This document shows, one piece after another, positions 6,546-46,306 of a stretch of 64,000 nucleotides of DNA. Made by a program: the position numbers and the translations under genes. How positions within the stretch are numbered: position 1 is the first letter of the stretch; each line of letters opens with the position of its first letter. This DNA is from a virus: IMG/VR virus record IMGVR_UViG_3300032268_001483, positions 32,001 through 96,000 of that record. One strand, 5' to 3'. The notes below the pieces were generated by a model that saw nothing but the letters and a program-made list of their open reading frames with translations, was not told the origin of the DNA and did not search any database.

Positions 6546-8174
6546 TTAACTTATAAATCTTATAACAAAAGTTCTAAACATTTCTAAGTCACTATTCAAT
6601 TTTCCCAAATCTTCACTCATTATTGAGTTTATAAAACTATCAGTATGATAAGTATATCCACACAAATTGTTAATTACACGTCTTATATATGCAAATTTTC
6701 GACTACCGTTAAATCCTGCTCTGATAGAATTAATTTTATAAAACAAAAATTCAGTATCATCAAAGGTATTTATTTCCTTCTTTTTAAGAATTTCATAAAA
6801 TTCGTTGAAAACTGCTTTCAATTTATCAACAAACTCGATATAAACTTTAGGATTATTTTCATTTGGCGAAGGCAACGAATTATTTGATGCCCTTTCCTTA
6901 ACAGATTTCTTGAATGTGTCAATACAATTTTCAAATTCTAAACTAAAGTTATTATTATTAGATATTCTAGTTTTGATAAGATTTATTAAATACCTTTGAT
7001 AATATTCTTTATCATCATCATCGATGAATAAATATAAATAATTTACGAATTGATTGAAATCATTAGTACTACCTGAGAGTGCAAAAGCTAATGCCTTTGG
7101 ACCACCACACATTTTTAGGACCGCACCTTTAAGATTCTTCAACTCTGGGTCGATTTGGACTCTTTTAGAAATTTCTTCGATGTATCTATTAATGTTTTTA
7201 GATTTAATCTGTTGGTCAGTCATAAGAGCAAGTGCTCCCTTTTTTCCAACTTCTCTTTCTTTTGAAGTATCACTCTTTTTTTTGTAGTCAGACTTTTGCA
7301 AATCTAGGTAATTCAAGACAATAGCAAAACTAGCTTTTTTGATTAGTGGTTCTATGTCACGATGTATTTCGACTTTCAAATATTGGTTCAAAATTCCATT
7401 CCATAGATAAGGATTCACTTCTTTGACAATATTTTCTTTAGTTTTTATTGGCTTAACTAGATAGGGTTCACCCGAATAATTATTAGTACTTGAAATTTGC
7501 CAACTACAATTACCATATTTTTTCCACTCATATCCAGAGGGTGACGAACCACAATATGAATTCTGTATCATATAAACACCATATTCTCTGTATACGGTTG
7601 CTATAAGGAGACTACCCCCGTTTTCTAATTTTATCAAAACTTTATCTCCAGTTTTCAACTCACTTAAGTCCATTAAACTAAGTGTTTTTACTTTTGTATA
7701 GTTTTCTATATTATCAGTGTTCTGAGCTTCCCTTATACTTCCATCAACACCAGTATATGTGATATAATTACCTTTAGTGTCAAACCAAAATTTTATCCAT
7801 TTCAAATTTTTTACTGATGACGGCTGAACACCGGTTCCTTTACAATTAGGGCACTCTACCATTCTTGTGCCGCTACCCCAGTTTCTTTTAATCTTACCCT
7901 GTTGACAGAATTCTCCCCTAATACCATTCTCGAATAACCCGAAACTTTCTGCTTCACAAGGCTCATCCTCATAGTTGATATTTAATTCGAGTGCCTTTTT
8001 AAAAGGTAAATATTGAAAAAAATCATCAGAAAATTGTGACATAGGAAAATCTATCCTACTTGCAATATTTTTTAGTTGATATAGGAATTGTTCCTTTCCG
8101 GTTGGAGAAAGAAATTTCATTGTTTTTCCTAAAATCTGAGATTCAAATGCTTCAAATAACTTTAAATATTTCAT
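6546..8174 (-). CDS. Hypothetical protein with leader and DnaJ-type Zn-finger segment
   Basis: MKYLKLFEAF; C..FCQQG..CPNCKGTG. Confidence 0.75.
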   Translation of the reverse strand: MKYLKLFEAFESQILGKTMKFLSPTGKEQFLYQLKNIASRIDFPMSQFSDDFFQYLPFKKALELNINYEDEPCEAESFGLFENGIRGEFCQQGKIKRNWGSGTRMVECPNCKGTGVQPSSVKNLKWIKFWFDTKGNYITYTGVDGSIREAQNTDNIENYTKVKTLSLMDLSELKTGDKVLIKLENGGSLLIATVYREYGVYMIQNSYCGSSPSGYEWKKYGNCSWQISSTNNYSGEPYLVKPIKTKENIVKEVNPYLWNGILNQYLKVEIHRDIEPLIKKASFAIVLNYLDLQKSDYKKKSDTSKEREVGKKGALALMTDQQIKSKNINRYIEEISKRVQIDPELKNLKGAVLKMCGGPKALAFALSGSTNDFNQFVNYLYLFIDDDDKEYYQRYLINLIKTRISNNNNFSLEFENCIDTFKKSVKERASNNSLPSPNENNPKVYIEFVDKLKAVFNEFYEILKKKEINTFDDTEFLFYKINSIRAGFNGSRKFAYIRRVINNLCGYTYHTDSFINSIMSEDLGKLNSDLEMFRTFVIRFIS

Positions 8175-10743: not shown

Positions 10744-10784
10744 TTTACTAAAATAATATATACTTAAAATTAAATATTTAAATT

Positions 10785-13628: not shown

Positions 13629-13640
13629 TAATATATATTA
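13629..13640. promoter_or_regulatory. Overlapping bidirectional TAATATATA/TATATATTA element
   Basis: TAATATATA at 13629-13637 (+) and 13632-13640 (-) between divergent ORFs 13626 and 13660. Confidence 0.55.
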
Positions 13641-19616: not shown

Positions 19617-20657
19617 ATGGATTATTATGACATTTTAGGAGTAACCAAGGGAGCGTCACCCGATGAAATAAAACGGGCTTTTCGAAAAAAAGCTGTTGAA
19701 CATCACCCGGATAAGGGCGGAGACGAGTCTAAATTCAAGGAAATATCAGAAGCTTACGAAACTTTATCCGATGAAACAAAACGTGGAGAGTATGATAGAT
19801 TCGGAAAATCTGGAAATCCATTCTCAGGGAGAGGTGGGGGACACGGGTTCAACATGGATGATATCTTTAGTCAATTCGGAGACATGTTTGGCGATGGATT
19901 TGGAAGACAACAACATCAACACCCACCAAAAAGGAGGGGTAATGATTTAAGAGTACAGATTCAAGTCACCATCGAAGATATACTTTTTGGATCTTCTAAA
20001 AAATTAAAATTTAAAAGACAAACACCCTGTCAACCTTGTGGTGGAAAGGGTGGCACTGGTAAAAAATCTTGCCCACATTGTAATGGATTCGGTAGAAAAA
20101 ACATCACACAACATACACCCTTTGGTGTAATCACTTCTACCCAACTTTGTAATAATTGTGAAGGCACTGGACAAGTGATTTCAAATCATTGCCAAACCTG
20201 TAAAGCTTCTGGTACAAATGCAGTCGAAGAAACAATCGATATTAATATACCAAAAGGTGTTAGTAATGGAATGTCATTAATCATGGATGGTTATGGTAAC
20301 CACGTAAGAGACGGTATACCTGGAAATCTACAAGTGATTATTAGTGAGGTTCCGGATCAGAAATTCAAACGCGAAGGGAATGATATAGTCTATGAACATT
20401 CAATTACAGTACCTCAAGCCGTTTTGGGTTCTAAAGAAACTATCCAAACATTAGAAGGCAATTTATCAGTAGATGTAAATCCAGGATGTGAAAGCGGTAA
20501 AGTATTTAGTTTTCCTGGAAAAGGAATTCCAATTTTATTAAACAATGGAACAAATAGTGGTAGAGGCGCTCTCTATGTGAAGGTAAATGTTAAAATTCCT
20601 AAAAATATTTCAGAAGAACAAAAGGCACTTTACCTACAATTAAGTAAATTTGACTAA
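19617..20657 (+). CDS. dnaJ: Chaperone DnaJ
   Basis: J domain with HPD, G/F-rich linker, four CxxCxGxG-type repeats, C-terminal domain. Confidence 0.96.
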   Translation: MDYYDILGVTKGASPDEIKRAFRKKAVEHHPDKGGDESKFKEISEAYETLSDETKRGEYDRFGKSGNPFSGRGGGHGFNMDDIFSQFGDMFGDGFGRQQHQHPPKRRGNDLRVQIQVTIEDILFGSSKKLKFKRQTPCQPCGGKGGTGKKSCPHCNGFGRKNITQHTPFGVITSTQLCNNCEGTGQVISNHCQTCKASGTNAVEETIDINIPKGVSNGMSLIMDGYGNHVRDGIPGNLQVIISEVPDQKFKREGNDIVYEHSITVPQAVLGSKETIQTLEGNLSVDVNPGCESGKVFSFPGKGIPILLNNGTNSGRGALYVKVNVKIPKNISEEQKALYLQLSKFD

Positions 20658-20673
20658 AAGAGATTTAAAAAGT

Positions 20674-20682
20674 TAATATATA
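20674..20682 (+). promoter_or_regulatory. TAATATATA promoter in front of structured RNA
   Basis: About 12 nt before the first stem of the 20693-20771 element. Confidence 0.5.
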
Positions 20683-20692
20683 CTTTATATCT

Positions 20693-20771
20693 AAAACCAC
20701 ATTTTAGGACCGTGGTTACGCACCGGGCAGGTGTCAGCTAAAAACCCAGACTTCGCTCCTCTGGGTTTTTT
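20693..20771 (+). ncRNA. Candidate H-type pseudoknot RNA followed by intrinsic terminator
   Basis: P1 aaccac/gtggtt; loop ttttag+gac pairs with gtc..ctaaaa; inserted cacc/ggtg hairpin; terminator aaaacccaga/tctgggtttt; GC-rich island. Confidence 0.55.
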
Positions 20772-20835
20772 CATTTTAAAACTTTTTTAAATTTATAAAT
20801 ACATTTAGTACTATTATTAACTTAAATATTATTTT

Positions 20836-21144
20836 ATGAAACACGAATTGAAAATTGAATTCAAAGAAAAGAGTCAACTCGAAGAAGTAATCCAAGGTTC
20901 CTACTTTAACGAATCCAACAACGGTAAACTAATTGGAAAAAAACACTCAATTAATATAAACCAAGAAGATCCACTTTTTATAGCCTTTAAAGGGCTAAAC
21001 AATAACACTGTCAAACTAATTAATGAAGAAATGATTGAGGGTTCTATGCGATGTATAGTAGTACAAGAAAATGACTCCTACATCGAATTATTTCCAATCA
21101 ATAACTACTGCATCATTCAAGAAAAAAAATACTCATTCTATTAA
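20836..21144 (+). CDS. Hypothetical protein
   Basis: 102 aa ORF directly before guaC. Confidence 0.6.
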   Translation: MKHELKIEFKEKSQLEEVIQGSYFNESNNGKLIGKKHSININQEDPLFIAFKGLNNNTVKLINEEMIEGSMRCIVVQENDSYIELFPINNYCIIQEKKYSFY

Positions 21145-21151
21145 AAAAATT

Positions 21152-22090
21152 ATGAAATTCGATTTTAACGACATTAACCTAAAACCAAGAAAGAGTATAG
21201 TTGACTCCAGAAGCCAATGTGATACATCTCTAAAACTTGGTAAATACACGTTTCAATTACCAATTGTTCCTGCAAATATGCAAGCCATAATTGATGAAGA
21301 TATTGCTATTAAACTATCTGAAGGGGGATATTTTTATATACTACATAGATTTGATATTGATGTAGTTGAATTCATCAAGACAATGAAATCATATAACTAC
21401 CCAACATCTATATCAATTGGTGTAAATAGTGATTCATACGAACTAATTAACCAATTAGTAGAATTGGATTTAATACCAGATTTTATTACCATAGATATAG
21501 CACACGGACATTCCATCAAGATGGAAAAAATGTTGCAGTTTCTAAAAGAAAAATTACCACAAACATTCTTAATTGCTGGAAATATTTCCACACCAGAAGG
21601 GGTAGAAGATTTACAAAATTGGGGAGCAGACGCACTGAAGATAGGAATTGGCCCGGGGAGCTCCTGTACAACTTATCCAGCAACCGGTTTTGGTTCAAGA
21701 AATTGTCAAGCTTGGACTATCTATGAATGCGCAAAAATAGCTAAAGTTCCAATTATCGCCGATGGTGGAATAAAAGTACCTGGGGATATCACTAAATCAC
21801 TTGTCTTAGGTGCAACTATGGTAATGGTAGGTGGAATGTTAGCTGGTCAGTTAGATTCTCCAGGCAAAACTGTACAGATTGATGGTAAACCCCACAAAGA
21901 GTTTTGGGGAAGTGCTTCATCACATCAGTCGGGTAAGAAAAATAGAATTGAAGGAAAGAAAAATTTAATACCACTAAAAGATAAGACAATTTCACAAGAG
22001 ATGAATTATCTAAAGGAGTGTTTACAGTCTTCTATATCTTATGCAGGTGGAAAAAACTTAACTGTTTTTGAAGAAGTAAGTTGGTTTTAA
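21152..22090 (+). CDS. guaC: GMP reductase
   Basis: Start reassigned to ATG 21152 (MKFDFNDINLKPR); IDIAHGHS, KIGIGPGSSCTT, ADGGIK, LQSSISYAGG. Confidence 0.92.
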   Translation: MKFDFNDINLKPRKSIVDSRSQCDTSLKLGKYTFQLPIVPANMQAIIDEDIAIKLSEGGYFYILHRFDIDVVEFIKTMKSYNYPTSISIGVNSDSYELINQLVELDLIPDFITIDIAHGHSIKMEKMLQFLKEKLPQTFLIAGNISTPEGVEDLQNWGADALKIGIGPGSSCTTYPATGFGSRNCQAWTIYECAKIAKVPIIADGGIKVPGDITKSLVLGATMVMVGGMLAGQLDSPGKTVQIDGKPHKEFWGSASSHQSGKKNRIEGKKNLIPLKDKTISQEMNYLKECLQSSISYAGGKNLTVFEEVSWF

Positions 22091-31906: not shown

Positions 31907-32085
31907 GACTTATATTTTCCTCCTCTTTTTTTCCTTTTACAATATTGCCTTTGAGAAAAGCCTAAATTAGGGTTACTACAATTTATTGATTTTTTGTATT
32001 TTACAGACCATCTTTTTTTACCACCCGCTCTTGGCTTATTGTAACTTTCGAATAAAAATTCTTCAAAATTTAATATTTTTTCCAT
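31903..32085 (-). CDS. Small basic protein (WSxKYKKSINCSNP..GFSQ motif) with leader
   Basis: 60 aa; motif recalled from T4-like phage small proteins. Confidence 0.65.
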   Translation of the reverse strand: MEKILNFEEFLFESYNKPRAGGKKRWSVKYKKSINCSNPNLGFSQRQYCKRKKRGGKYKS

Positions 32086-46297: not shown

Positions 46298-46306
46298 TAA
46301 TATATA
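46298..46306 (+). promoter_or_regulatory. TAATATATA putative late promoter heading the structural block
   Basis: 22 nt upstream of ATG 46329. Confidence 0.55.

Follow-up and report, generated by a model that had tools for sequence, protein, structure and literature searches.

The subject of this analysis is a small structured element at positions 20674–20771 of a 64,000-nucleotide stretch of phage DNA (the window, meaning the whole stretch that was analysed: positions 32,001 to 96,000 of IMGVR_UViG_3300032268_001483), taken from a 117-kb IMG/VR virus record that is approximately half complete and has a G+C content of ∼30%. The element is housed in a 178-nt spacer between a DnaJ gene (19617–20657) and an open reading frame (ORF) of 102 aa (20836–21144), with a GMP reductase gene, guaC, next in order. 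By sequence comparison the element is real and conserved, a phage RNA of ∼80 bases. The original prediction, made from the letters alone, described a promoter, a compact H-type pseudoknot and a terminator, forming either a riboswitch related to SAM-II and SAM-V that gates guaC or a free 80-nt RNA. The features of the locus, including three blocks (A, B and C) of complementarity to 23S rRNA, are as follows.

20674–20682, + strand: promoter-like box TAATATATA, ∼12 nt 5′ of P1, assigned from enrichment and position
20695–20717, + strand: hairpin P1, AACCAC / 11-nt loop / GUGGUU, in the minimum-energy fold and covarying
20704–20713, + strand: block A, UUAGGACCGU, the P1 loop plus the first two pairs of the P1 3′ strand, antisense to the 3′ strand of 23S helix 69 and the linker
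20716–20736, + strand: UUACG, complementary to the 5′ strand of helix 69, with block B, GCACCGGGCAGGUGUCA, complementary to annotated 23S positions 1821–1837 (base of helix 68)
20716–20736, + strand: hairpin P2, GCACC/GGUGU plus the next CA, within UUACG and block B, in the minimum-energy fold
20740–20771, + strand: P3, an intrinsic-terminator hairpin with an 11-bp stem, a 9-nt loop (CUUCGCUCC) and a U run, in the minimum-energy fold
20752–20757, + strand: block C, UUCGCU, within the P3 loop and complementary to 23S GGUAGCGAA (annotated 1923–1931), the bases just past helix 69
20778–20786, + strand: conserved box (U)AAACUUUU just 3′ of the terminator, in all relatives of the window lineage (L029–L054)
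19617–20657, + strand: complete DnaJ gene upstream, with Pfam DnaJ, DnaJ_CXXCXGXG and DnaJ_C domains (context)
20836–21144, + strand: small ORF, 102 aa, with 53 homologues, trailing the RNA across the phage lineage of the window
21071–22090, + strand: GMP reductase / IMPDH-family gene guaC, Pfam PF00478 (E = 3.5e-59, match from residue 31) (context)

All of the motifs quoted in the original prediction are present in the window where it placed them: TAATATATA at 20674–20682, AACCAC at 20695–20700 with GUGGUU at 20712–20717, CACC-GGGCA-GGUG at 20721–20733, and the terminator arms AAAAACCCAGA and UCUGGGUUUUU at 20740–20750 and 20760–20770. The minimum-energy fold of 20674–20775 consists of exactly P1, P2 and P3 (−26.2 kcal/mol; z = −2.44, with 4 of 200 shuffles as good), and no tRNA gene was found. 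Across 24 distinct relatives, aligned with a fitted model, 93.3% of cells pair against 76.0% with shuffled partners, and both sides change in 14 of 20 pairs, values reached in none of 500 shuffles; partners slid out of register pair in just 25–45% of cells. Compensatory changes occur at all six pairs of P1 (95% of cells paired) and at eight of the nine pairs of P3 (98.6%), with 10 different stems observed for P1 and 11 for P3; on swapping arms between relatives, the fraction paired is 0.43–0.51 against 0.97–1.00 with the arm's own partner. In P2 the 3′ strand, GGUGU, is invariant, and variation is confined to the partner strand. Spacers of the lineage retain the TAATATATA box, a covarying P1 stem that closes an invariant (A)UUAGGACC loop, a P2 of variable sequence with a constant GGUGUC end, and a covarying terminator with the conserved loop (A/C)UUCGCU(A/C)C. 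The homologues collected for covariation thus give strong support to P1 and P3. The P3 stem (20740–20750/20760–20770) contains G+C pairs and is followed by U residues to 20771, as in an intrinsic terminator, and P3 would be expected to terminate transcription; it was missed by a consensus terminator scan because the scan admits loops of up to 8 nt and the P3 loop has 9.

The window contains 32 copies of the motif TWATATATA, where 7.2 are expected (a count reached in 0 of 100 shuffles), with 29 of the 32 sites intergenic and most lying 6–30 nt 5′ of a same-strand ATG (for example 582–590, 10754–10762, 13629–13637 and 46298–46306). From this enrichment and placement before start codons, it behaves as a promoter box of this phage, and is probably its main (late-type) promoter consensus, unlike the TATAAATA of T4. 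With few exceptions, terminator-type relatives have an ATATATA or TATAAATA box 8–14 nt before P1. The TAATATATA box is therefore a candidate promoter for the RNA, from which a transcript would start a few bases 5′ of P1; enriched, correctly placed box and terminator are both present, and the promoter proposed in the original prediction gains support from the enrichment and intergenic placement. A look-up of RNA sequencing runs listed none for 20400–21200. The layout given in the original prediction, of promoter, compact structured RNA and terminator, is upheld. The TATAAATA at 20794, suggested as a separate promoter for the downstream genes, does not hold up, being weakly enriched (25 against 15.2 expected in the window) and not retained in relatives. 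The conserved (U)AAACUUUU box past the terminator shows no enrichment in the window, and may represent another class of promoter or belong to the 3′ end of the RNA; an ATACA or ATATG-like element lies 12–16 nt beyond it.

A wider family was collected with a search pattern built from the three conserved blocks. The IMG/VR scan gave 91 stretches, about half of them coding false positives from one gut phage group (GGGCTGAAATAGCCC...), leaving 40 distinct true matches that form a second, pseudoknot-type architecture; a metagenome scan added ∼70 further distinct members, many of them terminator-type variants. The family totals 101 distinct members from phage and metagenome contigs, each a single copy at its locus. 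Among 185,579 prokaryote genomes the same pattern gave 27 matches, and because all of these were unrelated coding chance matches the family is regarded as phage-specific. Other routes to relatives were less productive: the exact P1 23-mer had zero matches in IMG/VR, guaC-based relatives were likewise not found there, DnaJ-based relatives (24 loci, 45–50% identical) keep neither gene order nor element, and blastn of 80–92 nt motifs against cultured phages was too insensitive.

In pseudoknot-type members, ACACC/GGUGU encloses UUAGGACCGU and an inner hairpin, followed by a G+C-rich hairpin whose loop pairs with the 3′ tail, and by a third hairpin in between with the loop AUUCGCUA. The tail pseudoknot shows modest covariation in the main alignment, and wholly different yet complementary versions of it occur in four members (L129, L134, L088 and L112). 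These elements stand directly after the stop codons of varied genes, those of DNA-replication modules among them, and a TTGACA-17-TATACT promoter often comes next; other family members precede DNA polymerase, regulators and genes of unknown function. In most of the pseudoknot type (including L089 and L065, e.g. L065:2600–2615) the G+C-rich second hairpin, CGGCUGCUGGC, also holds an 11-nt exact complement of 16S rRNA 517–527 (the 530 loop), a match that may be chance, because the same loop pairs with the RNA's own 3′ tail.

The invariant blocks resemble the I-CeuI site of 23S rDNA. One E. coli operon served as the 23S reference, and a 40-mer used to check the link is present at 100% identity in the 23S genes of all 5,426 complete E. 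coli genomes. Annotated positions are given below unless marked canonical; canonical numbers are assumed to be the annotated ones plus six, an offset that takes helix 69 to be 1906–1924. Block A is the exact complement of annotated 23S 1913–1922 (∼1919–1928 canonical); it is invariant in 101 of 101 members by construction of the search, and the exact antisense match around it extends over 10–19 nt, reaching 12–19 nt in 79 of the 101 and 12–16 nt (ACCUUAGGACCGUUA) in the pseudoknot type. Where relatives differ, the change is towards the rRNA complement, with an 18-nt match in L144, 19–20 nt in L212 and L218, and AAUUUCGC in L242. In block B, 16 of 17 bases are identical to antisense 23S (up to 17 nt in the family), and the single change, C to U, leaves G.U pairing with 23S possible and creates an A-U pair within the hairpin of the RNA itself; the adjoining UUACG complements the 5′ strand of helix 69. 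Block C takes the form UUCGCUACC in most of the family, matching over 8–10 nt, with exact matches of 9 nt in 51 members, 8 nt in 17, 10 nt in 13 and 6 nt in 17. Over window positions 20704–20736, 31 of 33 bases are identical to antisense 23S 1906–1928 fused to 1827–1843 (canonical numbering), and in its letters the window RNA is a match to an antisense copy of the domain IV junction minus the distal part of helix 68.

A single 10-mer match is not significant and an adjacent pair of 10 and 8 nt arises in ∼0.5% of shuffles; matches of 15–18 nt are never or almost never reached. Antisense 8-mers from a 135-nt rRNA stretch cover 12–36 nt of each member against ∼1 nt in shuffles, which equal the observed coverage 0–63 times in 5000. 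Among 16 members tested, the sense-strand control is 0 in 13 and 8–9 nt in the other three, and for 15 the 135-nt stretch is the best window of the whole 16S plus 23S rRNA. The matching blocks are precisely the columns that do not vary across the family. The core bases of blocks A and C are more often unpaired than other bases: UUAGGA and UUCGCU have mean unpaired probabilities of 0.61 and 0.74, and the remainder of the RNA 0.42. Like an antisense small RNA (sRNA), then, the element displays conserved complementarity to a defined target in accessible bases, and the family combines an invariant UUAGGACCGU-type block complementary to helix 69/70 with a conserved fold, a phage-only distribution and one copy per genome. 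Duplex prediction between whole RNAs and rRNA with RNAduplex returned meaningless long-loop duplexes and was set aside.

A small-molecule riboswitch, in the form of an H-type pseudoknot variant of SAM-II, SAM-V or preQ1 controlling guaC, is next to negligible in probability. In the window UUUUAG can indeed pair with CUAAAA, and GAC with GUC, with a terminator directly following; these pairings are possible solely in the window and its nearest relatives, the loop reading AUUAG and the 3′ CUAAAA being absent in L035, L038, L044, L054 and others. No Rfam family matched the window or 12 family loci at the gathering score, and at E ≤ 10 the window segment 20600–20900 (301 nt) and L065 gave only matches at chance level; none of these, the nine in the window segment included, is SAM-II (RF00521), SAM-V (RF01826) or preQ1. 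Small size, an A-rich 3′ strand in the window and a possible loop-to-3′ pairing are shared with SAM-II and SAM-V, but a covariance-model match, a conserved pseudoknot and a methionine or SAM gene context are not: the genes downstream encode a 102-aa PUA-like protein and GMP reductase. The RNA is linked neither to guaC nor to any metabolic gene class, occurring also in unrelated gene contexts of other phages, and it is complementarity to 23S rRNA, rather than a ligand pocket, that accounts for the conserved bases. Gating of guaC is contradicted further by relatives that keep DnaJ, the ORF and guaC without the element (L028, with a 30-nt spacer, and L048–L053, with a 68-nt spacer). What survives of the original prediction, besides its layout, is its alternative, the free 80-nt RNA.

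The best reading of the element, to which about an even chance is given, is a trans-acting antisense RNA against domain IV of 23S rRNA, and by such an RNA the phage probably acts on the large-subunit rRNA of its host. The RNA would be a stand-alone transcript of ∼80 nt, starting just past the TAATATATA box and ending at P3, and a member of a phage-only family apparently built of antisense 23S domain IV pieces: the helix 68 base, all or part of helix 69, and the bases after helix 69. Its predicted self-folding would place UUAGGACC in the P1 loop and UUCGCU(AC) in the P3 loop, with the third antisense block, AGGUGUCA, on the 3′ side of P2. The loops may nucleate pairing with a contiguous, universally conserved 23S stretch, possibly by seeding two kissing contacts on adjacent parts of it. 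The target is base-paired in the mature subunit, and nascent or late-assembling 23S, otherwise unfolded 23S, or a free 50S subunit with helix 69 exposed would therefore be the more plausible substrate. As pairing spread, the intersubunit-bridge region could be prevented from forming, or the duplex could become a substrate for a double-strand RNase. Structure, conservation, covariation, phage-only distribution and complementarity are observed; the limits of the transcript, binding to 23S and any consequence for the host we infer from them. Taken to its full extent, the proposal holds that unrelated phages carry a host-independent anti-ribosome RNA that pairs with helix 68-69-70 of nascent or free rRNA, blocking 50S maturation or subunit joining or else marking rRNA for cleavage and nucleotide recycling, perhaps together with the PUA-like small protein in the window lineage; this is put forward tentatively, at somewhat under an even chance.

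If 23S rRNA were indeed bound, phages would possess a route to the translation machinery that is independent of host species, because the target sequence is nearly universal; the retention of the same 10–20 bases in phages that otherwise share nothing would be explained, and helix 69 with its junction would be a naturally validated antisense target. The reading is directly testable, the RNA being short and its predicted partner known to the base. To our knowledge, no natural bacterial or phage RNA has been found to target rRNA by base pairing, and literature searches on the sequence and the topic found no description of such an RNA. In a passage of PMC10777018 that cites Kulik et al. (2017), a synthetic antisense peptide nucleic acid (PNA) directed at E. 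coli helix 69 is credited with strand invasion, translation block and growth inhibition, so the site appears to be attackable.

The strand on which the element acts bears on a different proposal, in which the opposite strand is functional, or the element serves as a decoy, a mini 23S helix 68-69-70 junction titrating a protein that recognises this rRNA site, for example a ribosome-targeting toxin, an assembly factor or a modification enzyme. By definition the element has an rRNA-like complement, which in some members (L089 type) includes a helix 69-like hairpin, and the window-type terminator, with A and U runs on both sides, could work bidirectionally. Set against this, the element has the orientation of its flanking genes at every one of ∼50 loci, and the + strand carries the promoter box. 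G.U pairs exceed A.C pairs, 27 against 14, with most of the A.C from register errors, and the G.U pairs of the + strand, including the U.G pairs of P1, would be A.C mismatches on the other. At the G.U sites of the rRNA hairpins, a plain antisense copy would likewise carry A.C, and the phage RNA has U for C, as seen in P2 of the window and in the inner hairpin of the L089 type; A-U pairing is thereby restored in its own hairpin and G.U pairing with 23S kept. Replacement of the rRNA G.U pairs is needed for antisense folding and not for a mimic, and is what selection for self-folding and for 23S pairing together would be expected to produce. Comparison of minimum energies did not discriminate between the strands (−26.0 against −26.7 kcal/mol). 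The blocks are moreover permuted and helix 68 deleted, and the opposite-strand or decoy proposal is held to be very unlikely.

A simple terminator combined with a functionless relic of captured, inverted rDNA would account for other aspects: P3 is a good intrinsic terminator after DnaJ, and likeness to antisense 23S could come from the descent of a captured fragment. Against it stand the 101 distinct members, whose blocks are invariant and whose stems change in compensation although the phages differ greatly, the single copy per genome at varied sites, and changes that preserve self-folding and 23S pairing alike; this explanation is considered very improbable.

The main rival is a cis-acting leader or attenuator, in which transcription begun at the TAATATATA box either ends at P3 or continues through the small ORF and guaC; the conserved loops would sense a trans factor, be it free 23S, the 50S subunit or something else, in the manner of a T-box reading a stable RNA at two sites. 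In the window lineage the RNA lies directly 5′ of the small ORF in every member with room for the ORF, even in L054, from a 629-kb phage contig, where the other neighbours differ and guaC is absent; there is no TWATATATA box between the terminator and the ATG at 20836, and pairing of block C, placed as it is in the terminator loop, could influence termination. On the other side, the relatives without the element named above (L028, L048–L053) retain ORF and guaC, and terminator-type members L193, L224, L236, L238 and L247 have no such small ORF downstream. Pseudoknot-type members lack a terminator and are often followed by the separate promoter already described, the conserved box past the terminator could be a second promoter, and there is no conserved alternative (antiterminator) pairing. 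A leader is judged unlikely.

Several points weigh against the trans-acting antisense RNA itself. In the mature 70S ribosome the target is base-paired and partly buried, and an RNA acting one-to-one would need either high abundance or a target limited to nascent rRNA. Self-pairing ties up some of the antisense sequence (P2 and the P1 3′ strand), and the loop blocks are in permuted order with respect to the target, the 5′ block facing its 5′ part and the 3′ block its 3′ part, so that no single continuous helix can form unless the stems open. In the window lineage block C is degenerate, with 6 nt in the CUUCGCUCC loop, and the constant position of the RNA 5′ of the small ORF fits a cis-acting leader too; in the pseudoknot-type architecture no promoter or terminator of its own is visible. 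Pattern scans for a member adapted to the helix 69 of actinomycetes (ACCAUC) gave 0 matches and 10 chance matches; such a member would be direct evidence of target co-variation. In a Kribbella 23S gene (L284:1271–1340, − strand), helix 69 reads GGUGGU...ACCAUC in place of the common GGCCGU...ACGGUC, with compensating changes.

Parallels to the proposed antisense RNA exist among several known systems. The plasmid antisense RNAs CopA/CopT of R1 and RNA I/RNA II of ColE1 also display target-complementary bases in loops, an arrangement suited to kissing and then spreading, and trans-acting base-pairing sRNAs are likewise small and stably folded, with their own promoter and a Rho-independent terminator. 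Unlike these, the phage RNA has 23S rRNA as its predicted target rather than an mRNA or replication primer, carries two or three blocks for adjacent parts of the target in permuted order, and belongs to a phage-only family with sequence conserved across unrelated phages, presumably because the target is universal. The rRNA-complementary guide and chaperone RNAs of archaea and eukaryotes (C/D and H/ACA sno/sRNAs, U3) share short conserved rRNA-antisense elements within a small structured RNA and a bipartite contact that brackets a specific rRNA site; however, C/D or H/ACA boxes are absent from the phage RNA and the partner proteins from bacteria, the two-arm topology is opposite to that of an H/ACA pocket, and the phage element is virus-encoded and presumably directed against the host. 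The synthetic PNA (PMC10777018) shares the target helix, but is a man-made oligomer of the 13-mer class and not a natural folded RNA, and gives no indication of how the phage RNA would act. T-box leaders resemble the element in carrying a terminator and in contacting a stable cellular RNA at two separate places, with the 5′ block meeting its 5′ part and the 3′ block its 3′ part; they differ in that the phage RNA has no T-box sequence, specifier loop or conserved antiterminator, would pair with rRNA rather than tRNA, and in many family members has no terminator. The same 5′-to-5′, 3′-to-3′ contact arrangement is that of the EBS2/EBS1 loops of group II introns.

A hairpin of possibly related design occurs in cultured phages. 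Vibrio phage KVP40 contains exactly one TTAGGACCGT, by itself about the chance expectation, located in an unannotated gap of the tRNA cluster and co-oriented with the tRNAs (178199–178339; L299:900–1040, − strand). There, a P1-like hairpin, GAUAC/GUAUC, presents CUUAGGACC in its loop, and a stem with a U run comes next; 50 records of cultured Vibrio phages retain the stretch, with a U.G wobble in the stem of D482. Blocks B and C are lacking, so the hairpin may be another architecture of the anti-23S idea but no more than that, and the KVP40 group would offer an experimental handle in cultured Vibrio phages. No TTAGGACCG was found in phage T4. Within the window, a look-alike of P1 and block A, ACACAUUUUUAGGACCGC at 7108–7124, falls inside a 542-aa ORF on the opposite strand and was taken as chance.

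Turning to the neighbouring genes, contigs bearing homologues of the small ORF have the same order of DnaJ, spacer, ORF and guaC, and the ORF lies downstream of the RNA in every lineage relative with room for it. The ORF matched no Pfam or PHROG family. Its AF2 model is confident (pLDDT 92, pTM 0.83), and the best structural likeness, at middling scores, is to the PUA-like N-terminal domains of RsmE-type rRNA methyltransferases and to other PUA/ASCH domains (Foldseek E 0.13–0.9; VIA Z 6.6 with a root-mean-square deviation of 2.7 Å over 68 residues for 1vhk, and Z 5.0–5.2 for 1vhy, 3kw2 and 4j3c), making an RNA-binding role for the product possible. The label 'Dom34' applied by JGI to two of the homologues was unconfirmed by Pfam, PHROGs or fold search. 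The GMP reductase of relatives is encoded as 312 aa; in L042 (1808–3306) and also L043, it is called in two pieces, one of 271 aa and a further IMPDH-family piece, separated by a gap of ∼160 nt that could reflect an insertion, an intron or a frameshift. In relatives, an adenylosuccinate synthetase gene adjoins the DnaJ-ORF-guaC block (L049:1–19, L052:1–19), and purine-interconversion genes therefore cluster here in this phage group.

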